A stretch of DNA of 57,425 nucleotides. Origin: a bacterium. GTDB taxonomy: Bacteria; Krumholzibacteriota; Krumholzibacteriia; G020349025. The translations under genes were made by a program, and so were the position numbers. The stretch's first letter is position 1. Every line of letters starts with the position of its first letter. Shown here piece by piece: positions 13,413 to 48,521 of this stretch. The notes below the pieces were generated by a model. It worked only from the letters and a program-made list of their open reading frames with translations, had not been told where the DNA came from and made no database searches. The stretch is from positions 1 through 57,425 of the forward strand of contig JANLSU010000005.1 in NCBI GenBank assembly GCA_031362565.1, in the 5' to 3' direction.

Positions 13413-15005
13413 TCAGAGCGCCGGCTTGAACAGCAGCAGGTTGCCGCGCTGCGTTTCGTTCGGATGGTAGAGGTGGCAGGTCGTGCACCGGTTGGATGCC
13501 TCGTCCGGCTTATGGCACTCGCGGCAATTCTGGATGCCGGGAATGTTCTGGATCGAGGCGGTATCCATCGCCGGATCGAATTCTTTTCCGGCCAGCATCT
13601 CGTCGGTCATCGGGATCGAAGTGTGGCAGGCGAGGCATCGGCGATCGACGATGTGGGCGGCGTGATCGAACTCGGTGCGGCGCAGAGTTCGCTGGTCGGG
13701 CGTCACACGCAGGAGTGCGCCGTCGACGAGTTGGTGGCACTCCGTGCACTTGAGCGCCAAATGCGCCGCCAACGTGTCGAGCGCCGCCTGCCGTGCCGCC
13801 CCGGCCGCCGGGACGCCGCTCGCCGCGACCGAGAATGCCGGATCCGAACCCAGATCGTTGTTGGCGCTTCGCACCTTGCGACGGGCGACGGTGAGCAGCG
13901 AGTCGATCCACTGCAGTTCGGTCACGATCTCGGGCTCGGGCCGCCCGCGGAGACCCATCGCGTAGCCGTCCAGAGTTTGAATCGCTTCGCGATAGAGCTG
14001 CGTCGACGGCACGCCCTCATTGGCGCCGAATTTCACCAGGTCCGCCAGTCCCGCATTGGGGTAGATCCGCCGGCGAATCTGCCGCAAGTTCTCGAGAATC
14101 CACGGGTCCTCGTGGTAGATCGGCGACTTCTTCACCTTGTCGCCGCGCTGTGTGAACTCACTCGGGCTCGAATAGTAAGCCCAAGTGGTGCCGGGGCCGC
14201 CGCGCGCGCGGATCATCTCGAGCGTCTCGACACCGGGTGCTGTTGGGTCGGCGGCTTGGCGCACCGGCAAGAGATCGGTCTTGATGCCGGGTGTCAGATG
14301 GCACTGCGCGCAGTGCACCTCGAAGTCGATGGGGCGGAAGTGTTTGCCGTCCGGCTCCGCAACGTGGCAATAGATGCAAGCTTGCTCGGCGTTGGGCTCC
14401 TGAGTCAGCCGCATGACTTCCGCCAGATGCCGGCGATGCGTAAAGTGCAGTGTTTCGGAATCCGGAATGCGGTCGCGCACGAACTGGAATTCCGGGTGCT
14501 TGCGATTGAAGGACCCGTAGTCGTGGCAACCGAGACACTCCTGGTCACTCATGCGGGTGATCTGCGCCTCTCGCCCGCGGTGCTCGGTGTGGCAGTCGGC
14601 GCACGACTGAACGCTCCCGTGGTGCTTTTCGACCATGAGCGCCGCGCGTTTGGCATCGCCCGACCGGTACACCGAGTGCGCCGCGGCGCTGTAGACCCCG
14701 AGTGCATCGCCGGTCTTTTCATGGCAGATCGAGCATTTCTGGTCGGCGACTCCCTTCGCCGGCGTGTGGCATTTCATGCAACTGGTCTCGATGCGGGCAT
14801 GGGCCGAACTGAGCGGGCCGCCGGACACGAAGCGGCTCTTCAAGAAGACGTTGTCGACGATGACGTACGCGACGATCGCGAGCACGGCGTAACAGCCGTA
14901 TTGGGCGAGCCGCCACTTCCGGGGCATGACGTAGGCCTTCGCGACGCGCAGCCCGGCGCCGGAGAACTGCCCCTTCTCACGATCCGTCCTTTTGGAGCCC
15001 GGCAT
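13413..15005 (-). CDS. Membrane-anchored decaheme c-type cytochrome
   Basis: Ten CxxCH motifs (CMKCH, CSICH, CADCH, CLGCH, CIYCH, CAQCH, CTECH, CLACH, CRECH, CTTCH). N-terminal TM YAVLAIVAYVIV. ATG 15005 preferred to the ORF-track start, which overlaps the upstream gene. Confidence 0.9.
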   Translation of the reverse strand: MPGSKRTDREKGQFSGAGLRVAKAYVMPRKWRLAQYGCYAVLAIVAYVIVDNVFLKSRFVSGGPLSSAHARIETSCMKCHTPAKGVADQKCSICHEKTGDALGVYSAAAHSVYRSGDAKRAALMVEKHHGSVQSCADCHTEHRGREAQITRMSDQECLGCHDYGSFNRKHPEFQFVRDRIPDSETLHFTHRRHLAEVMRLTQEPNAEQACIYCHVAEPDGKHFRPIDFEVHCAQCHLTPGIKTDLLPVRQAADPTAPGVETLEMIRARGGPGTTWAYYSSPSEFTQRGDKVKKSPIYHEDPWILENLRQIRRRIYPNAGLADLVKFGANEGVPSTQLYREAIQTLDGYAMGLRGRPEPEIVTELQWIDSLLTVARRKVRSANNDLGSDPAFSVAASGVPAAGAARQAALDTLAAHLALKCTECHQLVDGALLRVTPDQRTLRRTEFDHAAHIVDRRCLACHTSIPMTDEMLAGKEFDPAMDTASIQNIPGIQNCRECHKPDEASNRCTTCHLYHPNETQRGNLLLFKPAL

Positions 15006-15015
15006 GGCCTTTCCT

Positions 15016-15861
15016 TCAGTAGTAGAGCACCGCGTACAAATGGATGAGGACCGCACCGAGCAGCAACACGGACGCGGGCACGTGCGTGTAGAGCCACCAC
15101 CGCAGGGTACGTTGTAGGGTGTACTGTGCATCGAGTTCGAGTTTGGCGCGGAACAGCGTCGACAGACGGTCGAGCTTTTTTCCTTCTTCATCGTCGAGAA
15201 CGCTGCCGACATAGTACCACTCACGCATGCGCGCCCCGACCCCGCCGGTGATGTCGATACAGTAAATGGCGCGTGGCGCGACTCCGGCCATCGCCGGTGC
15301 CATCGTCTCTTCGTAGAGCCGGCGCACCGGCTCGCCCGCGGTCATGACGAGGTTCTCGCACTCCTGCCGCATCTCGTCGATCAGGTCCGGAATACGTTCG
15401 TAGACCGCTTCCAGCGACAGGCCCGAGCTCAGCAATCTCGGGATCCATTTCTGAAGCAGCACGCCGATTGCGCCGCTCAGGCTCACCCACACCGATAGGG
15501 TCCAAAGCACGATGTTGAGCGGACCATGCGGGAAAACGAAACCCGAGTGCATGAGCATGAAGAGCAGAAAGAGTCCGCCGCCGTACACGTGCAGGAGAAG
15601 CCATTGGCGCGTCCGCCCCAAATCGCGCTGCATGGTGCGGCGCCGGACGCCGTACGCCGCCACCACCGCCATGGCGATCGTCGCGAGCGTGCCATAGGTG
15701 AGGCCCCAGGCATTGCCCGGTTCCACGTCCGCGACCAGCACATTGACGAGGAACACCAGGCCTGACAGGGCCGCGACCAACAGAGTCCCGCGCCGCCAGC
15801 GGCGCAGAGTCGCGCTGCGGACGGCACGGGCGTGTGGCTTGGCCTTGGCGGGTCCACTCAT
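15016..15861 (-). CDS. Integral membrane protein with four TM histidines (putative di-heme b / ferric-reductase-like subunit)
   Basis: Several TM helices with WLLLHVYGG, MLMHSG, WLYTHVP and VLIHLY. ATGA overlap with the upstream gene. Heme b binding is inferred. Confidence 0.7.
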   Translation of the reverse strand: MSGPAKAKPHARAVRSATLRRWRRGTLLVAALSGLVFLVNVLVADVEPGNAWGLTYGTLATIAMAVVAAYGVRRRTMQRDLGRTRQWLLLHVYGGGLFLLFMLMHSGFVFPHGPLNIVLWTLSVWVSLSGAIGVLLQKWIPRLLSSGLSLEAVYERIPDLIDEMRQECENLVMTAGEPVRRLYEETMAPAMAGVAPRAIYCIDITGGVGARMREWYYVGSVLDDEEGKKLDRLSTLFRAKLELDAQYTLQRTLRWWLYTHVPASVLLLGAVLIHLYAVLYY

Positions 15862-17483
15862 ACGCGCTCCGTCCCACGCACGACGAGCTGCTGAAATTCA
15901 TCCGGGCTGCCAACCCGCACCGCGCAGCCCTGCGGGCAGCTCCGGACACAAGCCGGGTCTTCGCCCGCCTGCAGGCATTGATCGCACTTTGTCGCGACCT
16001 GCTTGTTTTGTCCGTGCTTCGGATGGTCCTCGGGCCACTTCTCGGTGGTCTCGTACATCGTGATCGCGTCGTAGGGGCATTTGCTGTAACAGCTCCGGCA
16101 GCCGATACAGAGGTCTTCGGTGATTTCGACGATTTCGCGGACATCCGCCCGGTGGATGGCGCCGGTCGGACAGCCGATCAAACAGACCGGATCCATGCAA
16201 TGAAAACAGGCGCGCGTGATCAGCAGATTGGCGTACTTGTTCCCTTCGCGCACGAAGCGTGGCACGTTGTCGTGCGTCGCAGCGCAGGCCCGCACACAAT
16301 CGTCGCAACGGGTGCACAGATCGAGGTCGATGACGAGGATGCTGGTACCCTCGACGAGCCCCTGGCCGATGGCGCTGTCGATGAACTCGGCGCGGCCGGC
16401 ATTGCGCCGCGCATAACCCGTTTCCTTGATGCGCGCCGTCGCGACTTGCCACAATCGGCTCTCCATCGCCGGATGGCGGCGCAGGAGTGCCTCGAAGTCC
16501 GGACGCGCGATCTGTACCAGCTCGGTGTTCGCCACCGACGACGCCGTCCACAACCAGCCCGGGGACGGCGACAGGAGTAGCTCCGCTTCCCCCAGGGTCA
16601 TGCCTTTCGACAAGTAGGACACCGCGGCGTCTCCTGCCGCGACATTCTGCGCCAGCCGCAAGAACCCGGAGCGCACGAGGTACATGGCGTCCACCGGCTC
16701 GCCTTGCCGGACCAGTTCTTCCTTCGGGCCGAGCGACACGAGATTCACTGTTTGCGCGAGGGCTTCGAGAAATGCGTCGTCACATTCGGCGAGCAGCGGC
16801 GTGCGCCGCAGCTGCGCCGACAGCGAGCGCCGCCGGTAAATGGTGTCGATCTGCTGCTTGAGCGCCGCAGATTTCTTCTTCATCAGGGTGATGGCCGGTA
16901 CACGGATTTGCACCAGGCGGCTGTCCATCGCCGTGCGCGCCGTCACCGACTGCGGCCAGCCGTTCAGGGCGCCGATCTCGCCGAAGAACTCCCCGGCACC
17001 GAGACGCTTGGGCGGTGTGCCACGCGGCAGATCGAAATCCATCGCGGTCAGCAGAGTGACGCTGCGATCCCGGGTCTGCTTCTCGACCTGATTTTGGAGC
17101 ACCGTCCGGCCGGCTTCGGCGTCACCGCCAACGCGGGCGCCCGGGCGGCCGTCGCGCGGCGGTGTGACGCGGACGTCGAAGATCGGGATGGTGAGGTCAC
17201 TGCCGCCTCGCACATTTTCGAGATAGACGTCGACTGCACCGCTCACGACCCAGAATGCGACATCGAGATAGGAACCCTCCTCGAACAGCACGCTCCCGGC
17301 CTTCCAGTTCGCGACCCTGACGTCCGGAGCGATGGCGGCGAGCACTTTGTCGTCGTAGCTCTGGAAGATCATGAGCTGCCGCAGTTCTTGAACTCCGAGT
17401 GGCGGGTCGAGTCGGACGCGATCGTCGTCTGGGTTGGACCAACGGTCCCACCGCGCCTCGTCCGGTTCTCTCTTGGGGCTCAT
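15858..17483 (-). CDS. Tandem cyclic-nucleotide-binding domains fused to an NrfC/DmsB-type 4x[4Fe-4S] domain
   Basis: cNMP motifs LFEEGS..GEFFGEIGAL and VRQGEPVDAMYLVRSG..GMTLGEAELL. Cys groups CTRCDDCVRAC, CFHCMDPVCLIGCP, CIGCRSCYSKCP, CDQC..PACVRSCP. No signal peptide. Confidence 0.92.
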   Translation of the reverse strand: MSPKREPDEARWDRWSNPDDDRVRLDPPLGVQELRQLMIFQSYDDKVLAAIAPDVRVANWKAGSVLFEEGSYLDVAFWVVSGAVDVYLENVRGGSDLTIPIFDVRVTPPRDGRPGARVGGDAEAGRTVLQNQVEKQTRDRSVTLLTAMDFDLPRGTPPKRLGAGEFFGEIGALNGWPQSVTARTAMDSRLVQIRVPAITLMKKKSAALKQQIDTIYRRRSLSAQLRRTPLLAECDDAFLEALAQTVNLVSLGPKEELVRQGEPVDAMYLVRSGFLRLAQNVAAGDAAVSYLSKGMTLGEAELLLSPSPGWLWTASSVANTELVQIARPDFEALLRRHPAMESRLWQVATARIKETGYARRNAGRAEFIDSAIGQGLVEGTSILVIDLDLCTRCDDCVRACAATHDNVPRFVREGNKYANLLITRACFHCMDPVCLIGCPTGAIHRADVREIVEITEDLCIGCRSCYSKCPYDAITMYETTEKWPEDHPKHGQNKQVATKCDQCLQAGEDPACVRSCPQGCAVRVGSPDEFQQLVVRGTERV

Positions 17484-17487
17484 GCGC

Positions 17488-18480
17488 TCACCTCCCGATT
17501 TGACCGTAGAGTTGCTCGAGGCGTTTCTTGACGACGAGCAAGAGTTCTCGAACGGACGCACTGTCGGCGACCGCGGGCCGCGGCGGCAGCACGACCGAAA
17601 CCGGCTCGGACGCCGCGGGTACGACGGACCCCGGACTTGCGGCGCGCGACGGGGGTGGAATGTATTCGCTGGGCGGCGGCGGCGCGGACGGCGCGACGCG
17701 TTCTGGAGCCGCCGTGGTTGGCGCTACCGGCGCCGGCGGCGTGGCTGGCGCCGTTCCTCCGGAGGGCGGCGTCGCCGCGCCAGGCGTCGGCGCCACTGCC
17801 GCCGCAACTTGCTTCGGTGCCGGCGGCGGTGCGGGCGGTGGCGGCGTCTTCCCGACCGGTCCGCGCTTCGCCTTGGCCTGTTGGAACGCCGCCGGATCGG
17901 TCTCGGGCGACACGATGGCGCGCTTCCAATGCGCGCTCACCTTGCGCATTCCCAGGCCGTAGTCGAAGTTCGCGCCACTCGGGTGGCCGGCCGCAAGCAG
18001 CTTCTGATCCACGACGTAGTGGCAGCGAACGCAGGCCTCCGAACGCACCTTCAGATCCTTGAGCTTCGCCATGCCGGATGCGACCCCAAGGTCGTAGCCC
18101 TTGACGTGCGGTTCCTTGTACGCGCTCCCGGGCCCGTGACAGCTCTCACAGCTCACTGGTTCGTCGACTTCGGATTCCTTGCCGAACACCACCGTACCGT
18201 GACACGACATGCAGTTGCTCTTCTTGCCATTGAACACGTCGTCGGATGCGAGACCGTACTTGCCGGCGATCTCGTCGACGCGCTTTTGGTTGTCGTAGAG
18301 CAGGTCGATCGATGCGTGATGCTTGTCCTTGCTCCACCAAGCGTTTTCCTTGCCGCCGTGGCAGCTTGTCGTGGTCACGCCGCAGCCGGGCGATCCGAGG
18401 ACGCGGCTCTGGGCTCGCGCGGTGTCCGTACCACACAGAGCCGCGGCCACGAACAGAACAAAGGGGATGGCCTGCTTCAC
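17488..18480 (-). CDS. Periplasmic multiheme cytochrome c (c554-like, 3 CxxCH + 1 CX6CH) with Pro/Ala-rich tail
   Basis: Signal peptide (VKQAIPFVLFVAAALCGTDTARA). CGVTTTSCH, CMSCH, VSCESCHGPGS, CVRCH. GTGA overlap with the upstream stop. Confidence 0.85.
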   Translation of the reverse strand: MKQAIPFVLFVAAALCGTDTARAQSRVLGSPGCGVTTTSCHGGKENAWWSKDKHHASIDLLYDNQKRVDEIAGKYGLASDDVFNGKKSNCMSCHGTVVFGKESEVDEPVSCESCHGPGSAYKEPHVKGYDLGVASGMAKLKDLKVRSEACVRCHYVVDQKLLAAGHPSGANFDYGLGMRKVSAHWKRAIVSPETDPAAFQQAKAKRGPVGKTPPPPAPPPAPKQVAAAVAPTPGAATPPSGGTAPATPPAPVAPTTAAPERVAPSAPPPPSEYIPPPSRAASPGSVVPAASEPVSVVLPPRPAVADSASVRELLLVVKKRLEQLYGQIGR

Positions 18481-21400
18481 GGCAGGCCATCCGTGTCGGA
18501 GACGAACCAAGGTTTGCCGTCCCGCAAGTACAGGCGCTTTTGCTCGTCCAGCGACAAGGGGCGCGAGCCGAGGCGGCCGAAGACGCTCACTTGGTTGCCA
18601 CTCTCATCGACGGCACGATCGCGATCCATCCCCTTCGAGAGCGCGATCGCCGGCCCGTGCGTGTGCCGGGTGGCGACGATCCACGGTGTCGGGCGCGGGC
18701 TGAACCCGAGCGCGGCCGGATCGTCGGGGAACGTGAGTTGGATCACCTTGAGGCCGCCGTCGCCGTCCGCCAAATAAGCGAAGATGCTGGCGTTCGTCGA
18801 CGCGACGCGAACCGCCGTCGCATCGTGAATCTGGCCACCGGTAAAGATCTGATCGACGGTGACCGCATCCGGGCGCTCGACGTCGATGATGACGAGCCCC
18901 TGGGCGCCGGCCGCCACGTAGGCGTACGTCCGGGCGACGTAGACGTCGCGCGCGTCCGCGAGCGGCACCATGTTTTCCGGCACGCGTACCGGGCGTTCGG
19001 GGTTTGTCACGTCGATCACCTTGAAGCCCTCGGCGTCGCACACGAAGGCGTACCGGAATTGCAGCGCCACCGCGCGCGGCTCCACGACATCCGTTCCGCC
19101 GATCGTCGTGACGATCCGCGGCCGCAGGGGGTCGTCGAGGCTGACGACAACGAGACCGGCGCTGCAGCAGACATAGACATAGTTGCCGGCGATGGCGAGA
19201 TTGACGGCACCCGTCAGCATGCCGCCCGGATTGAACGTGATCGCGCGCCGGAGGAAATTGTCGGTGGGGTCGCGGTTTACGAGCGGCATGACGTCGACCA
19301 GAATCAATCCCTCTTCGCGGTCGGTGATGCACGCATAGCTATAGAGCGGATGCATCGGCCACTGCTCTTGATTCTCGGGGCGGTACAAGCGGCGCGTGTC
19401 GATCGGCATGGTGGTCGGCAGCGCGACGGCGGTCGCGAATTTGGTGTCGACGCGCGCCCGCTGGCCGAGGGGCGACACCGGCGCCGAGACGACGCGTTCC
19501 GAAAAGCCCTTGTTGTCGACGTTCGCGACGTCGTAGACGCGAAATCCGTCGGCGCCGTTCGCCGTAAAGAGATAGTCCCCACGCAACTGGAGTCCCAGCA
19601 CCTCCGTGCCCCCGTGGTGATGCGAGGTGCGAAGTGCGCCTTTTCTTTCCTGGTGTTTCTGCCAATCGTCCGGGTAGGCCAGATGGTGGAGCGCACTGCC
19701 GATGACGGCCTGGGGCTCGTGGACCTCGGCCACCGCGACACCTTCAAACCCGCTCGATCCCAGCCCCACCCAGGCGTACCGCCCCATGAAGTTGACCAGG
19801 TTGGTCCCCTGGAGAAGAACCTGCGCCATCCAGGCGTTGTTGTCGTTCTTCTTCGAGAGATGGCAGTCGGTGCACGTTCGGGTTTCGGTCTTGCGCACCG
19901 CGTGCGGAAAATGCGGGTTGAAGGCCTGGCTGCTGTAACCGGGCGCCGAGACCGGCGCCACTTGGCCGTACGTCTGTTCCCGGTTGGCGTTCCGCGAGCT
20001 CAACACGAGCGCACTCGACGAGCGCGCCGGAACGATCTTGTTGCCCTTGGTGGTCGCACCCACGCAGAGCATGAATCCGTCGTCGCGCAGCACTTGCGGA
20101 TTGTACGTCGTCCAGTTGCGCGACACTTCGCCCTCGAAATGGTTCGTCATCTTTTTCCAGTTGGCCTGCTGGGGCAGATGGCACCCGAAGCAGTTCGTGA
20201 CCCACGACGTATGGCAGGAGTAGCACTCCATGCGCCGGTTCGAATGCGCCAACTTCGCGTCTCCCATCGCGGGTTGCCATGCGCCGCCGTCCGTGGCGAC
20301 GCATTTGGCGGCGCGCGCCTTGGCGTTGTAGTTCGGGGACTTTGGATCGATGGTCTCGACGACTTGCGGGACATCCCACTTCAACGTCGAGTCCACCGCG
20401 GACCGCTGGATGATGCGTTTACCGCGCCGTGCGAATCGCTTCTCCCCGAACGGCGTGATGAGATCGGTAAGCGCGGTCCCACCCTCCGGCGCCGCCGGGC
20501 CGGAGGTGCGCAACGCCGCGCGGTCGGTCACCGTGCCATGGCAATCGATGCAAGTGATCTCGATCGCGTCGTGAAACTCCCCATAGAGCTTGCCGCTGCC
20601 GTGCGCATCCTGGCTGAAGTGGCAGTCGACGCAGTGCATCCCCTTCTCGGCGTGAATGTCCTGCAGGTGCACGGCCTTCTTCGCCTGCCGGCATTCCTCG
20701 TCGCAATACACCGGGCCGGTGGTATCGGCGACAACGACGCCGTGGAACTTGTGCGGCGAGTCGGCGGGAATGGCCGCGCCGTCGCGATCCAGCATGTTGC
20801 CCTTGCGGTCCTTCTTGAAGACCGCCCGGAACATCCATCCATGTCCGTGGTAGTCCGCGAACTGGGTGCGTTGCAGCTTCGGATTGAGGCGGCTCGACTC
20901 GGCGAGAAACTCGGGCTGCCGCCACAGGCCCCGCAGCGCTGCCTCCTCCGGGTTGCGCGCCAGGGTCGCGAATGCTTCCGCGTCGGACAGTTTCTGCTGT
21001 TTGGCTGGATAGAACGGCTCGCCGTCCGTTTCGTAGTCCCACATCTGGAACCCGTAGAACGTGTTCACGAAGGCGTTCGGCTGGTGCATGTGACACACCA
21101 TGCATTGGCTCGAGGGGATCGCGTTGGTCAGCACGTGGCGGATCGGGTGCCCGGATTCGGTCTTCGAGATCGTCGTGTCGCGGGTCGCACTGCGGCCGCG
21201 GTTGCCGTACCGGCTGTATGGACCGGAATGCACCGGCGACCGGTCGTTGGCATAGACGACGTGGCAGGCGGTGCAACCACTCGACCGGTAGTCGCCTGGG
21301 TTGTCGTTGGTGCCGAGATACCAGAGATGGGGGTCATTCAGGCGGGTTTTCTGCAGGTTCAGCACTGGAGAACTGATCCGCAACTGGGTGCCGAAACCGC

Positions 21401-22178
21401 GATCGCCGAGCTTCATGTCGGGCCGTCCCGGCTCCTCGAAGGGATCCGGAATGCCGATTTCCGACGGGTTGCCGCGCCCCACGCGCCCACCGCGTTCGAA
21501 GGCGCGGAAGTTGTCGCCGGGCTGGGTGATCTCCCACCGGGGCAGCGGCACCAAGAAGGGCAACACCCCGCGCGACATTTCCTCGGCGGTCGGCGGGGGC
21601 ACGGTGTTGACCCGGGCCGGCTTGCTGTCCCGCGTATAGCTTTCGCCGAGAATGTAGCGTTTGTTGGAAAGAATCCCATTGTTGTACGAGGCGCTACCCC
21701 AGAGTAGGGCCGATGTCGACATCATGCTCTTCTTGACACGCAGCACCTGGGAGCCGTGACACGCGCCGCCACAACTGATCTCGGCGACGCGTAAGTCACC
21801 GGGATTGACGAAGCGAATGAATTCGGGGGATTCGTCATTGAGCCACGTGAAGGAACGCTCCGGATTCGCCGCCGTCGGCCAACGTCCGGGGTGTCGCGGC
21901 AGAACGTGGGACTCCCGCAAGCCCGCGGCCTGCGAATTCCCGCCGTGGCAATCGGTGCAACCCATCGGCACTTTGCCCTGGTGCATGTCTTCGATACCCT
22001 GGTGGCAGGCCACGCAGCTCGAGCTCTTGGCCGCGACCTGGGCCGGTGTCTGGCGCAGGAGATCGGAGAGCGGATCGGCGGCCGCCAAACTCGATGCCAG
22101 AGCAGCGGCACACAACACGACGAGTAACATCCGGCGGCAGCGCCGGCCGTTCGTCACGGGCTCGATGGCGGTACTCAT
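18477..22178 (-). CDS. Large secreted multiheme cytochrome c (9 CxxCH + CX3CH) with C-terminal LVIVD-repeat beta-propeller
   Basis: Signal peptide MLLVVLCAAALASSLAAA. CVACH, CTDCH, CGGACH, CTACH, CMVCH, CVDCH, CIDCH, CYSCH, CFGCH, CTDCH. Repeats YAYVAAGAQGLVIIDV, YAFVCDAEGFKVIDV, AYLADGDGGLKVI. Confidence 0.9.
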   Translation of the reverse strand: MSTAIEPVTNGRRCRRMLLVVLCAAALASSLAAADPLSDLLRQTPAQVAAKSSSCVACHQGIEDMHQGKVPMGCTDCHGGNSQAAGLRESHVLPRHPGRWPTAANPERSFTWLNDESPEFIRFVNPGDLRVAEISCGGACHGSQVLRVKKSMMSTSALLWGSASYNNGILSNKRYILGESYTRDSKPARVNTVPPPTAEEMSRGVLPFLVPLPRWEITQPGDNFRAFERGGRVGRGNPSEIGIPDPFEEPGRPDMKLGDRGFGTQLRISSPVLNLQKTRLNDPHLWYLGTNDNPGDYRSSGCTACHVVYANDRSPVHSGPYSRYGNRGRSATRDTTISKTESGHPIRHVLTNAIPSSQCMVCHMHQPNAFVNTFYGFQMWDYETDGEPFYPAKQQKLSDAEAFATLARNPEEAALRGLWRQPEFLAESSRLNPKLQRTQFADYHGHGWMFRAVFKKDRKGNMLDRDGAAIPADSPHKFHGVVVADTTGPVYCDEECRQAKKAVHLQDIHAEKGMHCVDCHFSQDAHGSGKLYGEFHDAIEITCIDCHGTVTDRAALRTSGPAAPEGGTALTDLITPFGEKRFARRGKRIIQRSAVDSTLKWDVPQVVETIDPKSPNYNAKARAAKCVATDGGAWQPAMGDAKLAHSNRRMECYSCHTSWVTNCFGCHLPQQANWKKMTNHFEGEVSRNWTTYNPQVLRDDGFMLCVGATTKGNKIVPARSSSALVLSSRNANREQTYGQVAPVSAPGYSSQAFNPHFPHAVRKTETRTCTDCHLSKKNDNNAWMAQVLLQGTNLVNFMGRYAWVGLGSSGFEGVAVAEVHEPQAVIGSALHHLAYPDDWQKHQERKGALRTSHHHGGTEVLGLQLRGDYLFTANGADGFRVYDVANVDNKGFSERVVSAPVSPLGQRARVDTKFATAVALPTTMPIDTRRLYRPENQEQWPMHPLYSYACITDREEGLILVDVMPLVNRDPTDNFLRRAITFNPGGMLTGAVNLAIAGNYVYVCCSAGLVVVSLDDPLRPRIVTTIGGTDVVEPRAVALQFRYAFVCDAEGFKVIDVTNPERPVRVPENMVPLADARDVYVARTYAYVAAGAQGLVIIDVERPDAVTVDQIFTGGQIHDATAVRVASTNASIFAYLADGDGGLKVIQLTFPDDPAALGFSPRPTPWIVATRHTHGPAIALSKGMDRDRAVDESGNQVSVFGRLGSRPLSLDEQKRLYLRDGKPWFVSDTDGLP

Positions 22179-22201
22179 CGGCGATTCCGACTCCCCGGCG
22201 C

Positions 22202-23956
22202 TCAAAACCTGAACGACACCGACGTCTGGACGCTGTACTGCGTCCCAGGCGATTCGTAGATATCGTTCAGCGCTTCCAGCGGGCTCAGGCCCGTGGCCAC
22301 GAGCGCCACGTTCGCGTTGTTGTTGAGAAACGGACGATAGAACAAGCCCACACCATAGTCCAGGCCGATGTTGTGCCCAATGTTGGACTGATTCACGAAC
22401 GCTTCGATGACTTTCACATCGACGAACCGCAAATAGTTGGCGTTCATCGCCAACCGGAGCTGTGGCGTCAAGTCCGCGTCCCAGCCGCCGCCGGCGAGAA
22501 TCAAACCGGGATTCACGAAGTTGGGCTGTCCCTCCGTCTTGCTGCTGCGCAAGGCCGGCACGAGGCTCTCCTTGCCCACGAGCGCCACGCCCTGCAACCG
22601 AATTGCTTGCGTGTTCCAGTAGCTGAGCGCGCCACCCGCGAACACCGGCGAATCGACGATCGTGTCGAAACCGCGCCCGTGCGAATCGGCGGGATCACGG
22701 TCGCCACTCGAGAAAAATCCCGCGACCTTGAATCGCATCCAGTCCTTGTCCATCGACAATTCGAGGGCCGCCATCTGGGCGTTGATCGTGATGGCGCGAT
22801 TGGCGAGCGGGTTGAAGCGGTCGTCGCCGAACACCTGATAAAAAGCGTGGTCGACGTTCAAGCGGCCCCAATGGCCATCACCCGTCCAGCCGAGGTAATA
22901 GGCTTTCATGCGATGCGGCAAGGCACCGCCCGCGAGCGCCGGACGCACCAGGAAACCGTTCTCGTCGTAGTGCACGCTGGCCAGATCCAGGTTGTAGAGA
23001 AAACTGAGCTGGGCGGTGTAACCAGGAGTACCGGTGTCTTGGCGGTAGAGGTTCGCCACCGCCACTTCCTGGTCACGCTCGTCGAACACCGTGTTCAGTT
23101 CGCTGTTCGTGTCCTTTTCCAGCATGTGAAAGAGGGCCAGGTTGTACTGATAGCGGTTGCCCCGCAGGTTGCCGAACAACCGCGCCCCGAGGTTGTTGTC
23201 GTTGAATACGAAGCCGCGGAAGTCGCTGCTGAAGCGCTGGATCCCGCCGCGCACCGCGACGAAATCGAAGCGGTCGCCGACGTTGAGCAAATGTTTCTCG
23301 AGCGACAGTTCCTGGAAACCGAGGTGGTGATCGAGGCGATTCGAGCCGCGCCGTACGTTGATGTTCGTGCTGTTGTTCTCGCGCGTATTCGCGTAGTTGA
23401 CGTTGAACACCGGCGTAGCGCGGATTTCCCAGTCGCGAGGGCGGAACGCCGTATCGCCGTGGTAGAGTTCGAGAGTCAGTTTGAGTGTCTGATTGACGAA
23501 CAATTTGTCGCGCTTACCGAAAAACAGTTCGCTCTCCGGGCGCTCCGCGCTGACGCCGGACGGCGTAAAATTGCTCGTGCCCTCGACGATCGTGCTCGTG
23601 ATGCCGGTGAGCGCCAAGAACGTATTGTCCCCGAACACCGGATAGTCACCCTTGAGCGAATTGCGGTTGTACGGGTCGTACCAATGTTTCGGCACGTTCA
23701 GTTCGTAAGGCGGCGGCTGAATATCGCGCCAGCGGTCGGGAATCGCCACGAAATCGGTAACCGGTGACGGCGACGACGGCGCCGGTCGCGCCGTTGCAGC
23801 GGCGCTGCTGTCCACCGCCGCAGCCGTGGTCGAGTCGGCCGGTGCGGACACCGGCGCCGTCTCGGGCCAGGCACCGTCCGTCCAGAGAAGCGACAAGCCG
23901 GCGGCGGCAGCCCCGGCGAGGGTTCGAAACGTCCCGCGCATGTGGTTGATCTCCAT
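22202..23956 (-). CDS. Outer-membrane beta-barrel (porin-like) protein
   Basis: Signal peptide, amphipathic beta-strands, and a C-terminal beta-signal ending in Phe (YSVQTSVSFRF). ATG overlaps the upstream TGA; the longer ORF-track start is spurious. Confidence 0.8.
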   Translation of the reverse strand: MEINHMRGTFRTLAGAAAAGLSLLWTDGAWPETAPVSAPADSTTAAAVDSSAAATARPAPSSPSPVTDFVAIPDRWRDIQPPPYELNVPKHWYDPYNRNSLKGDYPVFGDNTFLALTGITSTIVEGTSNFTPSGVSAERPESELFFGKRDKLFVNQTLKLTLELYHGDTAFRPRDWEIRATPVFNVNYANTRENNSTNINVRRGSNRLDHHLGFQELSLEKHLLNVGDRFDFVAVRGGIQRFSSDFRGFVFNDNNLGARLFGNLRGNRYQYNLALFHMLEKDTNSELNTVFDERDQEVAVANLYRQDTGTPGYTAQLSFLYNLDLASVHYDENGFLVRPALAGGALPHRMKAYYLGWTGDGHWGRLNVDHAFYQVFGDDRFNPLANRAITINAQMAALELSMDKDWMRFKVAGFFSSGDRDPADSHGRGFDTIVDSPVFAGGALSYWNTQAIRLQGVALVGKESLVPALRSSKTEGQPNFVNPGLILAGGGWDADLTPQLRLAMNANYLRFVDVKVIEAFVNQSNIGHNIGLDYGVGLFYRPFLNNNANVALVATGLSPLEALNDIYESPGTQYSVQTSVSFRF

Positions 23957-25545
23957 CACGGCAAGTTCGGCTGGCGCGGGTATTTGATGTACGGCAACCG
24001 AACTCCTTGGTACGCGAAGCGATCGCAGCGGATCTCCGGCGGTGGTTCGTACCCCTTCGCACCAAAGAACGCAATGATGTCGTCCTGGTCGACGCCATCG
24101 CCCGAGATGCCGAGTCCTCCCACAAGTTGGCCGTTCTTGTACAGCGGCACCCCGCCCGGAAAAATTGTCACGCCGTTGCCCCTGCCCGGGCCAAAGGTGT
24201 CGAGGCCCTCGAGGGCTTGAAAGGCGAAGTTTGGGCCCTTGAATAGCGGCCCCGCTTGCAGCGGTGCACCCTCCAGATCGCGATCGATGCCGGGCGGGAA
24301 AAAGTCCTGGCACAGGAATCCCACCGCGCGCGCACTCATCGCCGGCGCCGGGCCCGAGCCCAGCCCGAGAATGGTGCGCAGCCGCTGGCCCAAGACATGG
24401 TTGGGGTCGCTGAACGCGACGCACGTCCGCGCCTTCTGGACGCAGACGTCGTAGCTGAAAATGGTCGCATCGGGCGTCCGCCAAATCCCAAGCACGCTGC
24501 CGTCCAGGTCGACAACCGAAATAAAGACGCGCGCCGGTACGCCCACGGGCCGCCGGATCGCGGCGCGAGTGCGATTCGCTTGCTCCACGGCCTGGCCGAT
24601 GATGCGTTGCACGTCGAGCAAGGTGAGAAAGGTGCCGGCTCGCAAATTGAAGTCGTGCAATGCGCCGCTCTGGCAAGTGCCGTCGAGCGCGTGCTCGAGA
24701 CACACGGGGCCGCTCGGCGGGTATGCAGGCAGTCCGCCTCCCTGCAAGACGTCGGCCGTCCCGGTGGTCGCTATGTCGGCAAATGCCAGGTTGAACGCCA
24801 CGCGCGGCGCCGCCGCATTCGAATACAAGAAGCGAATCCCGTCGATGAAGATGCCGTCGCCGCGCAGGTCGGCCGGCGCCGCGAAGTCCACCGAGGCTCC
24901 AAGGGCGATTTTCTCTTCGGGCGTCTCGCCGGCGCACTGATCGAGCTGGAATCCACCCGAAAGAGTCGCACCGGCAATTCCGATCCCGCCGGCCAGCAGC
25001 CCGTCCTTGTAGAGCGGCACGCCGCCCGGCGCGCCGGACAGGCCGTTGCCGTTCGGCTGGATGTCGCTGCCGGGTTCACTCGAGTACGGCACACCGAACA
25101 ACGGTCCCGCCGGGGTGTTGTCGATGTCCGGCGGAAAATGCGCCCGGGTGATGAAGCACGCCGTCAAGGTCGTGAATGCGTGCTGGTTGCTGCTCAAGTA
25201 GGCCGCCGTTCGGGCGTTCGCGACCGCCAGGTCGGCGGGTGAACTTGTATCCGCCGGCGACAACCGCGGCACGAACGGGTTGGCATCGCTGCCCGTCATT
25301 CGGAACAACCCCAAAACGTTGCCCTCGCGATCCGAGATCGCAACAACCACCGGCTGTCCAAGAGATTGCGCCAGTTCCACCGCATGCGCGGTGAGCGCTT
25401 GCACGTCGGCAAGCGTCAACCGGCCGGTCTCGGTGGGCGTCTCCGGTGCGGTCGTCGAATCACATGCGAACCACAAGACGGCGGTCGCGAGAATCGTGAC
25501 GATTCCGACGCTGAACGGCCGATCACGACGGACGCGTGGGCTCAT
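23956..25545 (-). CDS. Lipoprotein with tandem GlcG/HbpS (heme-binding/degrading-like) domains
   Basis: Lipobox VLWFAC. Two domains, each with LTLxDVQ.., (I/V)xD..G.VLG, ART and PGGVPLYKxG.L.GG.GI.G. ATGA overlap. Confidence 0.85.
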   Translation of the reverse strand: MSPRVRRDRPFSVGIVTILATAVLWFACDSTTAPETPTETGRLTLADVQALTAHAVELAQSLGQPVVVAISDREGNVLGLFRMTGSDANPFVPRLSPADTSSPADLAVANARTAAYLSSNQHAFTTLTACFITRAHFPPDIDNTPAGPLFGVPYSSEPGSDIQPNGNGLSGAPGGVPLYKDGLLAGGIGIAGATLSGGFQLDQCAGETPEEKIALGASVDFAAPADLRGDGIFIDGIRFLYSNAAAPRVAFNLAFADIATTGTADVLQGGGLPAYPPSGPVCLEHALDGTCQSGALHDFNLRAGTFLTLLDVQRIIGQAVEQANRTRAAIRRPVGVPARVFISVVDLDGSVLGIWRTPDATIFSYDVCVQKARTCVAFSDPNHVLGQRLRTILGLGSGPAPAMSARAVGFLCQDFFPPGIDRDLEGAPLQAGPLFKGPNFAFQALEGLDTFGPGRGNGVTIFPGGVPLYKNGQLVGGLGISGDGVDQDDIIAFFGAKGYEPPPEIRCDRFAYQGVRLPYIKYPRQPNLP

Positions 25546-27938
25546 GGGCGCACGACCTCGATGACAACCGGACCCTTCGGCTTCAGAACGCACGCCATGC
25601 GATGCGCGCCGGGCGCGAGTTTGCAAATGTCCTCGATCGCATCCCGCTCGTCGCTACTGATGGGGCCGAGGTACTCGGCGCCGGAGATGATGCGCACCGG
25701 ATCGGCGCCGCAGGATCCCGCGTGGCACGACGAATCGATTTCGATGCCCTGTTCTTCCGCCAAATCGCAGATCGACTGCCCAGGTTTCAAGGTGAATGTC
25801 TTATCGAGGTCCCGGAACGTCACGGTGATCCCGCCGGCAGCGGGTGCTCCGCCGGCAGCGGCGGGCGGTGGCGGCGCTGCTGCACGGGCGGCGGACTGCA
25901 ACGGCGCAGCGGCGGGAGTTGGAACCGGTCGCGCCGGGGCCGGCGCCGGGGCCAGTGCCGGAATCACGGCGGTTCCCCTCGGAGCCGTACGATGGCCCAA
26001 GTCGAGAACTGCGTTGTCCTTCAAGCTGAACACGAAGAGCTGCTGGCCGACCCGGAAATGGTCCCCGTGTTCGAGCCGCACGAGGTTTGCCACCTTGAGG
26101 TATGTCCCGTTGGCGCTCTTGAGGTCGCGAACGAACGTGCGTCCGTCCTTGACGAGGATGGCAAGATGACGGCGTGACAGGCTGAGATCGCCGGCGTCGA
26201 TCGAAAGATCCGCCTCACGCCCGACGACGATCGCGCCTTCGTGCAGCTCGTGATGGCCTTTCTCGTTGCCTTGATCGTCGTAGTGGACGAGGTAGCGGCG
26301 ATCGCCCTTGCTCCACGCGACGAGGAACTGGCGCCCGAGCCGGACGATGTCTCCCGGCACCAGCTCGATGGTCTTTGCTTCCCGCGCCTGCAGATAGACC
26401 CCGGTGGCACTGCCATCGTCGCGCAAAAAATACCCGTCGGCGCCGGCTGAAATCGACGCGTGGCGATCCGACAACAGTGTGTCGTCGACGAACGACAAAT
26501 CACAACCCCGCCGGCCAATCGTCGTCACCTCGCCCGGTTTGAGCGCGAACTCGTTTTCCTGCACATCTCCCGGGAGAATTCGAATCAGCCACGCAACATC
26601 CTCACGGACGCGGCGGTCCTCGAACAGACTCTTTTCCGGCGGTCCGGCGCTCTCGACCGGCGCCACCGCCAGCGGCACCGGTGCCGGCGCCAGGTCGACG
26701 GCAGCGGGCTGCGCCTTCGTGGCGGGGATTGCCGGCGTGCCGGCCGCTTCCGCCGCGAACGGAATTTCGATGTCTCCGGCCGGCTCGTTCTGCAACCGCC
26801 GCCGAATGACCTCGGCGACCAAATAGCCGTCGGTCAGCGCCATCTTAATGTTGCCGCGGTGCGCCACCTCACGGTACGTGGACGGATCGGCGTTGAAATC
26901 GTCGGTCTCGAAATACGCCTGCGCCAGGATGTCGCCGACGAGATAGACGTTCTCGAGCTGGGTTTCGAGGTGCTTCGTGACCAGCATGCGCTTCTTGCCT
27001 TCGGCACTTGCCGTGGCCATGTAGATACCCATCGAATTCAAAAGCCCCTCGGGAATATCCTCGCCGATACAGGCGATACAGGATTCCTTCAGGAACTCCA
27101 GATGCGAGCTTTCGCACGGCCGGTTCGGGAGTTGCTTGCGGTCGATTCTGAGCGCGAGATAGTCGCGGCGATCCTCGCCAACCACGACGGCCGTCGGCTC
27201 GCTCTTCGGGTGGTAGCGGATGTTGCCGTTGCCGATGTACGCCTCGAAAAAGACCTCCGCCAGCGCCTTGGACACCCGCGGCAATTTCTCGCCCCGATAC
27301 GACCAGAACACGTTCGTCGGATCCTGCGCGGTGATTTTCGCATTCGAAATCGCGATGACCGCCTCGGCGGCCGAAGTGCCGCCGCCGATCACACACGCCG
27401 GGCTGCCGACGTACGCGGCCGCGTCCTGGAGACGAAACGCGATGCCGTCCGTGTTGCCTGGAATATCGAAGCGGCGCGGCACCCCTCTGCCGATCGAGAT
27501 CACGACATGCCGGGCGAGGAAGTTGGCCGCCGCCTGGGCTTTGTGGTTCCAACAACGAACGTTCCAGACCTTGTCCGGCCGCCGCTCGAGACCCAAAAGC
27601 TCGACGCCCACCTGAACCGGAACCTCGCCCTCCTGAAAGTGCCGCTTCCAGAGCAGCACCATTTCATCCTTGTCGATCGGTGCGAAGTGCAGGCGCGCGA
27701 AGAGCGCTCCGCCCACCGGGAATCGCATCCGGTCCCCGCCGCCGAAATCCGGCAGGATCGACTTGTCCTTGGGGTATTCGCGAATGCGCTTGAGAATGTC
27801 ATCGTAGTCGATGACCAGCGCCGAGAATCCAAGCTCGCGGGCCCGGAAGGCGACGGCGGTTCCACCGGGACCCGCGCCGACGATCAACGCGTCGAGAACT
27901 TCGTTGGCTTCGCCCAGAACCACGACACGCGCCTCCAT
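25542..27938 (-). CDS. FAD/NAD(P)H oxidoreductase (TrxR/YpdA/FNR-like) fused to two FHA domains and a [2Fe-2S] ferredoxin
   Basis: IVGAGPGG, VIGGGTSA and ETQLENVYLVGD. FHA1 TIGR..LSDRHA..RDDGSATGVY. FHA2 VGR..LSRRHL..DLKSANGTY. C-terminal CHAGSCGAD..RMAC. The start may be a GTG slightly downstream. Confidence 0.9.
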   Translation of the reverse strand: MEARVVVLGEANEVLDALIVGAGPGGTAVAFRARELGFSALVIDYDDILKRIREYPKDKSILPDFGGGDRMRFPVGGALFARLHFAPIDKDEMVLLWKRHFQEGEVPVQVGVELLGLERRPDKVWNVRCWNHKAQAAANFLARHVVISIGRGVPRRFDIPGNTDGIAFRLQDAAAYVGSPACVIGGGTSAAEAVIAISNAKITAQDPTNVFWSYRGEKLPRVSKALAEVFFEAYIGNGNIRYHPKSEPTAVVVGEDRRDYLALRIDRKQLPNRPCESSHLEFLKESCIACIGEDIPEGLLNSMGIYMATASAEGKKRMLVTKHLETQLENVYLVGDILAQAYFETDDFNADPSTYREVAHRGNIKMALTDGYLVAEVIRRRLQNEPAGDIEIPFAAEAAGTPAIPATKAQPAAVDLAPAPVPLAVAPVESAGPPEKSLFEDRRVREDVAWLIRILPGDVQENEFALKPGEVTTIGRRGCDLSFVDDTLLSDRHASISAGADGYFLRDDGSATGVYLQAREAKTIELVPGDIVRLGRQFLVAWSKGDRRYLVHYDDQGNEKGHHELHEGAIVVGREADLSIDAGDLSLSRRHLAILVKDGRTFVRDLKSANGTYLKVANLVRLEHGDHFRVGQQLFVFSLKDNAVLDLGHRTAPRGTAVIPALAPAPAPARPVPTPAAAPLQSAARAAAPPPPAAAGGAPAAGGITVTFRDLDKTFTLKPGQSICDLAEEQGIEIDSSCHAGSCGADPVRIISGAEYLGPISSDERDAIEDICKLAPGAHRMACVLKPKGPVVIEVVRP

Positions 27939-27993
27939 GGACCGGTGGTGCAAACCGCGCTGCCGGCTCGCAGTGGCCGCCGCGCCGCCGGCG

Positions 27994-28875
27994 TCAACTC
28001 AAGACCGTCTCGACCTCACCGAAGAAAATTTGCGCCCCACGTTGCAACTCGACCTGCTGGATCGCCGCCCCACCGACAAAAGTGCGCGAATTCTGTGAAA
28101 TGCTCTGCAACAGCACGCCGCGCGCGTCGACAATCAAGATTGCGTGTTGTTTCGAAACCGTCGGATGCGGAATGACAATGTCGTTGTCCGCGAGGCGCCC
28201 AACGCGGTTCGCGCCGAGCTTCAACTCATGGACGCGTGGTGCCGCGCCCGCGGCGCGCACTTCGAGTTGCAGGCGCGGCGCGGCGGCTACGGCCGGTTCC
28301 GGATGTGGCTCCACACTTGCCGGACGCGGTGGCACGAACGGCGTCGCCGGTGCTTGACGCACCGTCTCGCCGCCCGCCGCAGGACGCGGCGGAATGAACG
28401 GTGCCGCAGGCGCCTGGCGCACCGTCTCGCCGCCTGCCGCCGGACGCGGCGGAACGAACGGCGTCACCGGTCCGATGACGGTCGGCCGGCTCACGGCGGC
28501 GATGCCCGCGACCGCGACCGGGGCAGGCTCCGAAGGCGCCTCCGCCATCATGCTCGCAGGTGATCCGACACTGAAAACGAAGTCGAACTCACCGGCGAAC
28601 GAAATCACGTGCAGACCCTCGAGCCGCACTTTGCCGCGGACCGGCATGCCGTCCAGTTCGGTGCCGTTCGTGCTCCCGAGATCCTCGAGGATGTAGCATT
28701 CGTGGATGGCATCCCACGTAATGCAGGCGTGCCGCGCCGAGATCTGCTCGCTGTCCAACGCAAGCAGTTCGGGCGTCGAGTGGCGTCCGGAGGACCGTCC
28801 GATGGTGAGCACCTCGTGAATCGGCACATCGATGCTCGCCATCGCGCCGACCTTGCAGAACAATCGTGCTCGCAT
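27994..28875 (-). CDS. Double-FHA-domain protein with Pro-rich repeat linker
   Basis: FHA1 TIGR..ISARHA..EDLGSTNGT. FHA2 RVGR..VSKQHA (partly degenerate). ATG 28875 after a GAGGA RBS. Confidence 0.88.
   Translation of the reverse strand: MRARLFCKVGAMASIDVPIHEVLTIGRSSGRHSTPELLALDSEQISARHACITWDAIHECYILEDLGSTNGTELDGMPVRGKVRLEGLHVISFAGEFDFVFSVGSPASMMAEAPSEPAPVAVAGIAAVSRPTVIGPVTPFVPPRPAAGGETVRQAPAAPFIPPRPAAGGETVRQAPATPFVPPRPASVEPHPEPAVAAAPRLQLEVRAAGAAPRVHELKLGANRVGRLADNDIVIPHPTVSKQHAILIVDARGVLLQSISQNSRTFVGGAAIQQVELQRGAQIFFGEVETVLS
28319..28470 (-). repeat. 60-bp tandem repeat, about 2.5 copies (PF(V/I)PPRPAAGGETVRQAPA(A/T))
   Basis: Sequence lines 28321, 28381 and 28441 align in register. Confidence 0.9.
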
Positions 28876-29142
28876 CGTGTTCCTCGCGGTCGTCGTCCTG
28901 ACGTACGAAGGAAAATTCCGCCGGCGCGGTGACTGAGATTGCAAGTTGAGGCGGTAGCCTAACACGGTGGCCGGCGCGTGGGAAGTCCCCACCCTGCCTG
29001 GGCGCGCCGCCGTCCGGCGGCGGTCCGCCGCCGGAGACAACGAGCGTTGCGGTCGAGTGCGCGGACTTTCCAGCCGGATCGGGACTTGCATCGCGCCACC
29101 TTTGGTGGAGGCGCCGTCCGCAGCGGCGCTCGAAGGGTGGAT

Positions 29143-32637: not shown

Positions 32638-32690
32638 GCGCCGACGAAACCCATTTATTAATCAGGTGCGTGCGAAAGGAACTGCACGCG

Positions 32691-34520: not shown

Positions 34521-34524
34521 GAGG

Positions 34525-35715: not shown

Positions 35716-35771
35716 GGCAACGAACCGCGTTCGACGCAGCGGCACAGTTCTGCACAGATCGGAGGACCATC

Positions 35772-46532: not shown

Positions 46533-46536
46533 GCGT

Positions 46537-48228: not shown

Positions 48229-48396
48229 CAGTGTAGCACAAGAGCGATTGGTCTTCCGGAGCCGGCGCAAGCCCGGTCACCGCCCAATCGCCGTGTCGCT
48301 CCCGTCCAGACGCGCCGGAAACCCAGTCCAGGCGCGCCCCTGCACGCTGCGACCCGATGTGTTTCTTGTCCCTTTCGGCCCACGATGCCGTATGAT
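48229..48396. promoter_or_regulatory. Divergent promoter region
   Basis: Minus strand has an extended -10 TGcTACACT near 48231-48239. Plus strand has TTGTCC-N19-TATGAT (48366-48396), with a long spacer. Confidence 0.35.
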
Positions 48397-48521
48397 TGCC
48401 CGCCAAGCGATCAGAACAAGGGTGGATGGGACACTCGCCGGGTGCAGGCGCGCGTTTGCGCCAGCATGCGCGCGAGCGAAGTCGTGACGGATCGCGACGA
48501 TCGCCCAATGGAGATTCGAGC

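Follow-up and report, generated by a model that had tools for sequence, protein, structure and literature searches.

The window analyzed here, a 57,425-nucleotide stretch of contig JANLSU010000005.1 from a member of the Krumholzibacteriota (assembly GCA_031362565.1), carries a cluster of nine open reading frames (ORFs), termed g1 to g9 in the order of their transcription, which all lie on the minus strand and cover positions 28875-13413. A first-pass annotation of the sequence had read them as a conduit that carries electrons from NAD(P)H to the cell surface under the control of FHA and cyclic nucleotide (cNMP)-binding domains. Its inventory of nine co-oriented genes, their domains, 22 CxxCH motifs and two atypical haem motifs is borne out by ORF analysis, Pfam matches and motif counts. 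Our results suggest another destination for the electrons: we consider it about an even proposition that the cluster encodes a modular, regulated chain that exports NADPH electrons to a periplasmic terminal enzyme, g5, rather than to the cell surface.

The 22 CxxCH motifs are distributed over g5 (nine), g6 (three) and g9 (ten), against a chance level of at most 0.04 per protein, with a maximum of 1, in 1000 shuffles. Beyond them stand a CGGACH (Cx3CH) motif in g5 and a Cx6CH motif in g6. Adjacent genes overlap at five junctions (g2/g3 ATGA, g3/g4 TGATG, g4/g5 TTGA, g5/g6 GTGA and g7/g8 ATGA), and the remaining intergenic gaps measure 55, 4 and 10 nt. Four of the overlaps stand as first reported, with that of g5/g6 using the g6 start at 18480, whereas the g4/g5 overlap holds only with a TTG start of g5, the better ribosome-binding site being found at the ATG at 22178. 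A promoter and terminator scan of the locus performed no better than chance, and its sole strong hairpin sits over the g5/g6 overlap.

The inner half of the cluster comprises a reductase, an iron-sulfur (FeS) protein, a membrane protein and two cytochromes, several of which resemble components of the PCC4 and Ptd systems compared below. The 798-aa protein g2 (25542..27938) combines an FAD reductase, closest in fold family to the YpdA/TrxR-fold enzymes, with two FHA domains and a [2Fe-2S] domain (Pfam matches to Pyr_redox, FHA twice and Fer2). Its NADPH-type motifs GxGxxA and SYR are kept in 30-31 of 31 homologues, and an alignment of these 31 sequences reveals no TrxR active-site CxxC, an absence that is expected for an NADPH-ferredoxin reductase. 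The proposed fusion of an FAD reductase with a [2Fe-2S] domain is thus present, with the correction that the third ligand position is occupied by Asp, both in the window and in 30/31 homologues. In g7 (15858..17483), two cNMP-fold domains precede a PtdE-like iron-sulfur domain of the DmsB/NrfC type (two cNMP matches and Fer4_11), which is predicted to carry four [4Fe-4S] clusters because all 16 cluster-motif Cys are conserved. The putative dihaem-b protein g8 (15016..15861), which corresponds in its description to the PCC4 inner-membrane protein (IMP) and PtdF, has five hydrophobic helices, an SGxxG motif and two Wx3Hx13H motifs (H91/H105 and H260/H274). Its four His, located in transmembrane (TM) helices 3 and 5, are invariant in 38/38 sequences; both W-motifs are found in 34/38 homologues and two Hx13H motifs in 38/38. 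The His spacing is 14/14 in g8 versus 14/13 in NOX2, and within the ferric-reductase-domain (FRD) family, the long NADPH-linked forms are described as keeping all four His, unlike YedZ (PMC3591440). The FRD family itself (PF01794) matches only 5/38 g8 homologues, weakly (best E 3e-4), and cytochrome b561 matches 18/38, while a PDB sequence search with g8 gave only coiled-coil noise. At two loci (L017 and L131), g7 and g8 homologues form one polypeptide, and these fusions are genuine.

Two cytochromes complete the inner half. The first, g6 (17488..18480, start probably GTG 18480), is a periplasmic, PtdD-like tetrahaem protein of the c554 type (Cytochrome_C554), whose first haem motif reads Cx6CH in the window and Cx4CH in distant homologues. 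The second, g9 (13413..15005), is a PtdG-like decahaem cytochrome anchored to the membrane by one N-terminal helix. In alignments that cover a narrower clade than the g5 set, g6 shows four conserved non-motif His for its four haems and g9 eleven for its ten. With 24.3 bits against TIGR03508 (cut-off 192.2), g9 is not a member of the DmsE/MtrA family.

The outer half consists of a barrel, a large cytochrome and a probable lipoprotein. The outer-membrane protein g4 (22202..23956, start at 23956 or 23941) ends with a C-terminal Phe and has no Pfam match, and a PDB sequence search with it found no match. Its model (pLDDT 86, pTM 0.84) folds into an 18-stranded beta-barrel with a conserved N-terminal arm and is most similar to AlgE (Foldseek E 1.5e-15; Z 26.3, rmsd 2.9 Å, 367 residues), followed by OpdQ, OccD2 and OccAB of the same AlgE/Opd/Occ group; an Atlas search likewise indicates alginate-export barrels (0.95). 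The adjoining g5 (18477..22178; 1233 aa) is an exported decahaem cytochrome with a C-terminal LVIVD propeller (LVIVD Pfam), equipped with a plain signal peptide and lacking a lipobox or recognisable export tag. The model of 1199 residues is compact (pTM 0.91), with the seven-bladed propeller formed by residues 765-1152. Both atypical haem motifs of the cluster exist, but the one in g5 is a local one-residue insertion found in 1/132 homologues, with a plain CxxCH in 128, and thus belongs to an ordinary haem 3. The protein is well conserved: its median identity outside its clade is 53%, whereas the barrel reaches 43%, the FeS domain 38%, g6 28% and g9 27%. Moreover, it contains an invariant Met and, for its ten haems, 17 non-motif His conserved to at least 95%. 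Poor conservation is reported for porin-cytochrome and nanowire cytochromes and good conservation for reductases (PMC12977616). The high conservation of g5, its surplus of His and the AlgE/OprD type of its barrel suggest that it may be an enzyme behind a solute channel. A Gly/Pro/Arg-rich segment of the model (residues 190-246, window about 21340-21510, minus strand) is conserved (mean 0.73) at a pLDDT below 50 and represents a candidate partner-binding arm.

For the haem domain of g5, we found no solved relative. A PDB sequence search gave one weak haem pair matching octahaem nitrite reductase, and fold searches with the whole protein returned propellers, so that the haem domain was masked; searched separately in the Atlas, it matched only unnamed multihaem clusters. 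The match of g5 to the ExtM profile NF040943 (E 5e-24, 84.5 bits) lies below the membership cut-off of 800. The third outer protein, g3 (23956..25545), contains two GlcG/DUF336 domains (two HbpS/GlcG Pfam matches) and is probably a lipoprotein, given a lipobox-like motif in 30/49 N-terminal stretches, a few of which are upstream false matches. A role of this protein as a haem carrier is not supported: the best His column reaches 32/50 and none is conserved at 90%. Instead, the second domain keeps a small-ligand pocket of the EfgA type, with K344 (50/50), S454 (50/50) and D461 (49/50) corresponding to EfgA K57/S114/D121; the published descriptions used for this comparison cover the EfgA pocket and the axial haem His (His18) of PduOC (PMC8153426; PMC4923194).

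The cluster is widespread. In a search with g5, 8000/8000 scored sequence clusters had E values of 1e-20 or better, and the top 120 shared 57-71% identity with it; in GTDB genomes, at least 593 of 602 pattern matches are g5 relatives. We kept 80 of these at least 593 g5-bearing stretches, from more than 10 phyla, for analysis. The barrel gene lies directly upstream of g5 in 65/67 loci with 1.5 kb of room, a GlcG gene is present in 45/48 loci with 4.5 kb of room, and 28/32 loci of at least 20 kb contain three or all four inner genes. The profiles behind these counts were built from the same loci; BLAST with the window proteins alone gives the same picture. This wide co-occurrence, the four invariant His of g8 and the NADPH-type motifs of g2 uphold the first-pass view of a conserved trans-membrane chain tied to NAD(P)H. 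The distribution is patchy: within its own phylum, the cluster is found in 1/208 genomes, that of the window itself, compared to 1/151 in the Zixibacteria and 31/167 in KSB1, where 25 of the 27 genomes with a g2-type reductase (167 searched) also encode g5. Because its nearest relatives occur among KSB1 and Bacteroidota, it was likely gained horizontally. Mis-binning of the contig is unlikely, as it resembles the genome in tetranucleotide composition (r 0.992; median 0.997) and GC content (0.658 vs 0.653). As a separate observation, lone g2-type reductases occur in KSB1 at L101, L103, L106, L108 and L114, the g5 of these genomes being encoded on other contigs.

Three architectures can be distinguished. 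Type A, found in the window, KSB1, Bacteroidota, Zixibacteria and some Nitrospirota, encodes separate FHA-FHA, reductase-FHA-FHA-Fer2 and cNMP-cNMP-FeS proteins. Type B (Proteobacteria, Bdellovibrionota, Acidobacteriota, Nitrospira and Sphingobium) has a TrxR-fold reductase fused to cNMP-cNMP-FeS and often an FHA-type domain at the N-terminus of its decahaem. Type C encodes cNMP-FeS without a TrxR-fold reductase, with an FNR-family-Fer2 protein at L021, so the inner module accepts unrelated NAD(P)H flavoproteins: a TrxR-fold enzyme fused to cNMP-FeS, one with FHA domains, or an FNR-family-Fer2 protein. Gene order is shuffled among loci, with that of the window recurring at L104, L110, L111, L112 and L113. 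Apparent fusions of GlcG with the barrel (L110), g5 with the tetrahaem (L064) and FHA with the reductase (L105) were discarded because they reflect read-through across masked runs of N, and g5 or g8 homologues broken across frames at L025 and L039 may be assembly errors or pseudogenes. In Sphingobium herbicidovorans (L097, pMSHV), the cluster is split into two convergent operons near ShlB/FhaC secretion genes and a gene for a 2092-aa protein.

The inner module also occurs with another outer module. A g8 profile gave 38 matches in 301 Nitrospirota genomes, and seven of the 20 loci fetched combine a pentahaem cytochrome and a porin with the tetrahaem, TM and decahaem proteins. In one of them, L131, a type-A inner module is followed by kinase and TPR/CsgG genes. 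A quick tree of the TM proteins (74 rows, omitting L104, L115 and L039 as well as any row whose domain was masked or partial) nests L131 among type-A loci (SH-aLRT 100) and groups the other six pentahaem loci with the g5-bearing L021 (SH-aLRT 99). Since the pentahaem loci split between these two groups, outer modules have been exchanged. Further Nitrospirota loci (L121, L124, L126-L128 and L133-L137) harbour g8-like proteins beside giant cytochromes with up to 68 CxxCH motifs; most have an FeS-reductase nearby, and they form a separate branch of the tree.

The regulatory domains were the second element of the original proposal. Phosphothreonine-binding FHA domains are characterised by GR, SxxH and NG motifs. 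Upstream of g2 lies g1 (27994..28875), a 293-aa FHA-linker-FHA adaptor (two FHA Pfam matches), whose FHA1 has these motifs intact in the window (GR, SxxH, SxNG). In FHA2 of g2, they are kept across the homologues (GR 31/31, S 31/31, H 29/31, N 31/31), while g2 FHA1 and g1 FHA2 of the window depart from the motif at Asn. The functional role of the Arg in the cNMP phosphate-binding cassette is taken from CRP/PKA-type domains. In the cNMP-fold domains of g7, the cassette Glu is kept and this Arg is lost, being replaced by Q178 in domain 1 and W310 in domain 2. Among type-A proteins, Gln replaces it in 16/16 first domains and Trp or Ala in 15 and 1 of 16 second domains, whereas it is present at the other loci in 37/37 and 36/37 cases, respectively. 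As type A is defined by similarity to the window, this loss counts as one evolutionary event rather than sixteen. Gating by cNMP thus appears plausible for types B and C, not at the window locus, where the two domains may bind another ligand. The proposed dual control consequently survives in its FHA half, with intact phosphothreonine-binding motifs and kinase or PP2C genes often adjacent, and not for cNMP, because both cassettes lack the Arg.

Among loci of at least 14 kb with an FeS or reductase gene, a kinase is encoded in the fetched stretch of 8/10 type-A loci versus 1/29 type-B/C loci. A motif search adds a kinase at L045, and L029 and L031, outside the main count, also have kinases. A PP2C gene lies between reductase and kinase at L019, L039, L095 and L116 (Pfam-checked for L019). 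In the window, two divergently oriented Hanks Ser/Thr kinases (28978-30660 and 30782-32584, plus strand), anchored in the membrane and with their catalytic motifs intact, are probable regulatory partners of the cluster. They are followed by Pfam-supported genes for a TPR/CsgG lipoprotein, a barrel-like protein and a CsgG-domain protein (32670..36905, plus strand), similar to genes also found behind the kinase at L091, L093 and L140, and the unit probably reaches beyond 28875 to the kinase and TPR/CsgG genes. A second pair of TPR/peptidoglycan-binding and barrel-like genes lies at 45357-48141 (minus strand), and the same locus ORFs match 32670-35715 too. It is likely, judging from these motifs and neighbourhoods, that the electron chain of the type-A clade is phospho-gated through its FHA domains. 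The FHA cut-off is also passed at the N-terminus of 4/7 type-B decahaems scanned, while type-C decahaems have no FHA; a mere replacement of cNMP by FHA was rejected as an explanation, given the FHA-type domain on the decahaem of type-B loci.

In the chain that we envisage, NADPH would reduce the FAD of g2, whose [2Fe-2S] cluster would hand the electrons to the four [4Fe-4S] clusters of g7. They would then cross the inner membrane via two b haems of g8, as in NOX and ferric reductases, and pass from the anchored decahaem g9 via the tetrahaem g6 to g5, which would act as a decahaem-propeller oxidoreductase on a small solute, most likely an S, N or Se oxyanion, a quinone-like compound or a metal chelate. 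The solute would enter through the AlgE/OprD-type channel g4, and the lipoprotein g3 would bind or sense a small ligand. In the type-A clade, the gate would be Ser/Thr phosphorylation read by FHA domains, not cNMP. The outward direction fits the dedicated NAD(P)H flavoprotein and the four-His g8, as in NOX/FRE. Outward flow would be assisted by the membrane potential, and since export consumes both this potential and NADPH, tight control would be expected. A more far-reaching version, which we put forward only tentatively as the less probable case, holds that the PCC4/Ptd core could be a plug-and-play NADPH-to-envelope exporter, a multihaem counterpart of NOX with exchangeable reductase inputs and terminal modules, with g5 as a new enzyme class, represented in thousands of sequence clusters and possessing an extra metal or catalytic site, and, in the type-A clade, an FHA phospho-switch on the reductase itself in place of decayed cNMP control.

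Several observations weigh against an NADPH exporter that feeds a periplasmic enzyme. In seven type-C loci, neither profile nor motif searches of the fetched stretch detected a reductase, and the six Nitrospirota pentahaem loci outside type A lack both the FeS gene and the reductase, so input from NADPH is not a universal feature. The monomer model leaves a conserved g5 segment of 55 residues unfolded. A kinase is present at only 5/24 reductase-anchored loci, many of which are short; most of the kinases next to the cluster are not orthologous (30-38% identity), and the hosts are kinase-rich, with 39 kinases encoded in the window genome. The PCC4 IMP was proposed as a quinone-active cytochrome b with inward flow (PMC5566968), and the Geobacter enzyme MccSep is reported to show no overall relationship in sequence or structure to c552, the cytochrome that PtdA resembles (PMC13510729).

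The near-invariant adjacency of barrel and g5 (65/67) likewise speaks against this reading and for a true porin-cytochrome conduit, in which NAD(P)H electrons would reach the cell surface and part of g5 would be threaded into the barrel. The low-confidence segment 190-246 and the N-terminal arm of the barrel could fold on binding, and PCC4, Ptd and the group-1 PCC discussed below have all been proposed as extracellular electron transfer (EET) systems. We nevertheless consider such a conduit unlikely: the barrel has 18 strands and resembles AlgE/OprD, compared to about 26 in MtrB and 25-36 in Mtr-like barrels, g5 is compact, conserved like an enzyme and devoid of a lipobox or recognisable export tag, and g9 scores far under the DmsE/MtrA cut-off (24 vs 192 bits). 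In addition, its hosts include Sphingobium, Limnobacter and Bdellovibrionota, which are not known as mineral respirers. On this point we depart from the surface conduit first proposed and favour the periplasmic, NADPH-fed enzyme.

Somewhat less probable still is inward flow, with g5 oxidising a periplasmic or external donor and the electrons ending in the quinone pool or on NADP+. PCC4 was discovered in the genomes of iron oxidisers and drawn with this direction (PMC5566968), Ptd genes are reportedly transcribed in bacteria of oxygen-deficient zones (ODZ; bioRxiv 10.1101/2023.11.21.568154), and a related FHA-nonahaem/TM/FeS cluster is described as expressed in Ferrigenium (bioRxiv 10.64898/2026.01.22.701106). 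On thermodynamic grounds, however, NADP+ would need a very low-potential donor, no Mo, NiFe or similar site is encoded, and the NAD(P)H flavoprotein and four-His membrane protein match the direction of NOX/FRE. A redox sensor that reports the envelope redox state or a ligand to kinase, FHA or cNMP-fold domains would account for the four FHA domains, two ligand-fold domains, the EfgA-like pocket, the FHA-type domains on the decahaem in many type-B loci and the kinase, PP2C and TPR/CsgG neighbours, but is equally doubtful given that 24 c haems, two b haems, up to five FeS clusters and an FAD exceed the needs of sensing and that type-C decahaems lack FHA.

Genes for cytochrome c maturation are present in the surrounding genome, as are three of the haem-copper oxidase family, and 19 of its ORFs contain at least three CxxCH motifs, including one with 42 (contig C85:77939-81307). 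A second related module on contig C105 (L138:6136-11759), situated behind a PAS kinase/LuxR pair, combines an FeS-TrxR-fold reductase and a g8-like protein with 20- and 16-haem cytochromes. Within the window, a co-oriented gene for a 1595-aa FG-GAP/FlgD-Ig protein (8580-13367, minus strand) begins 45 nt downstream of g9 and is followed by one for a phytase-Ig-PKD protein (6039-8462, minus strand); weak FG-GAP matches aside, neither is conserved beside the cluster in relatives. Further away, positions 48396-56249 (plus strand) encode a 2617-aa protein with G8, Ig-like and FlgD-Ig domains.

The decahaem-propeller is among the most conserved unexplained multihaem proteins, and metagenome studies are counting it as a marker of EET. 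Should it instead be an enzyme of the periplasm supplied by NADPH, these assignments would be wrong, and many soil and freshwater bacteria would carry out an undescribed redox reaction. It would, moreover, be unusual for bacteria to control a trans-membrane electron chain directly by phosphorylation. Cultured hosts of the type without an FHA-reductase, Sphingobium herbicidovorans and Limnobacter humi, make its function accessible to experiment.

The first-pass annotation knew of no comparable system, but two descriptions bear on the cluster: that of PCC4/Ptd, made in silico, for the inner half and a 2026 study of karst metagenome-assembled genomes (MAGs) listing a large decahaem, a porin of ~20 strands and FNR (PMC13264449). 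A literature search, with most subscription journals outside its reach, turned up neither an experimental study nor any text in which the LVIVD decahaem is named; an LVIVD mention for Tenderiales is unrelated. According to its description, PCC4 (He et al., 2017; PMC5566968) comprises a porin, 4-, 5- and 10-haem cytochromes, an FeS gene, a redox gene and an IMP with five helices, SGxxG and two Wx3Hx13H motifs. Judged from the descriptions, it is apparently one system with ptdABCDEFG, named by Elbon et al. (bioRxiv 10.1101/2023.11.21.568154), likewise in silico. Matched by such descriptions rather than by accessions, the inner half of the window cluster is the PCC4/Ptd core already described from genomes: both have a tetrahaem, a cNMP/FeS protein (PF13247), an IMP, a decahaem, a flavin oxidoreductase and a porin, g8 shows every IMP motif (five TM helices, SGxxG, two Wx3Hx13H), and the cNMP and 4Fe-4S gene (PF13247), here g7, lies upstream of the IMP gene. 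L131, which fits the Ptd description, shares 63% (g2), 45-54% (g7), 44% (g8), 36% (g9) and 34% (g6) identity with the window, and its pentahaem matches 5ZE8, the Thermochromatium tepidum c552 (E 2.4e-8), as described for PtdA; at L118/L120, the values are 26-28% for the tetrahaem and 23-24% for the decahaem. Unlike PCC4/Ptd, the window lacks a pentahaem that has a beta-sandwich at its C-terminus (PtdA) and instead has the decahaem-propeller, the GlcG lipoprotein and a barrel showing no detectable similarity to PtdB-type porins. The pentahaem and g5 share only one haem-pair stretch of 42 columns, and the comparison of g4 with PtdB-type porins gives an hhalign probability of 0.1%, against a shallow 7-sequence alignment from loci fitting the description. 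Furthermore, g2 has a TrxR fold and carries FHA and Fer2 domains, PtdC by its description resembles a flavohaemoprotein, and the window has lost the cNMP cassette Arg.

The outer module probably corresponds to the karst group-1 PCC, represented in the text of that study by 11 clusters with a large decahaem (4-5 kb) and a ~20-strand porin, with FNR in 7/11 (PMC13264449). That text reads them as EET systems and leaves the propeller, GlcG, the inner module and regulation undescribed; g5 measures 3.7 kb. The same source gives barrels of 25-36 strands for Mtr-like clusters. MtrCAB, MtoAB, PioAB and the Geobacter Pcc systems share with the window a barrel adjoining multihaem cytochromes, whereas the window has a small 18-strand channel, cytoplasmic flavoprotein input and neither an MtrA/DmsE member nor a CymA/NapC quinol link. 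The Geobacter Ext systems (MccSep/ExtKL, ExtI, ExtM), as described, likewise place a periplasmic multihaem enzyme beside a porin, and g5 matches the ExtM profile, albeit below its cut-off, but MccSep is a pentahaem selenoenzyme. In Geobacter, a pentahaem that bears an Ig domain and adjoins a porin is reported to be a periplasmic polysulfide reductase (PMC13510729); an equation of PtdA with MccSep was dropped, as the latter is described there as unrelated to c552, leaving an analogy only. By its description, the Ferrigenium cluster (bioRxiv 10.64898/2026.01.22.701106) resembles the window in its anchored multihaem, five-helix protein, FeS protein and cytoplasmic FHA, but its FHA forms one polypeptide with the cytochrome, like that of type-B loci, and the text describes no barrel module. 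NOX/FRE and MsrPQ offer a parallel for the membrane passage, from NAD(P)H via FAD to two b haems held by four His, whereas the window employs a separate TrxR-fold reductase, an FeS relay and a multihaem output. Set against these systems, what is new here is the pairing of the PCC4/Ptd inner core with another outer module and with a probable phospho-signalling reductase, in a widespread cluster.

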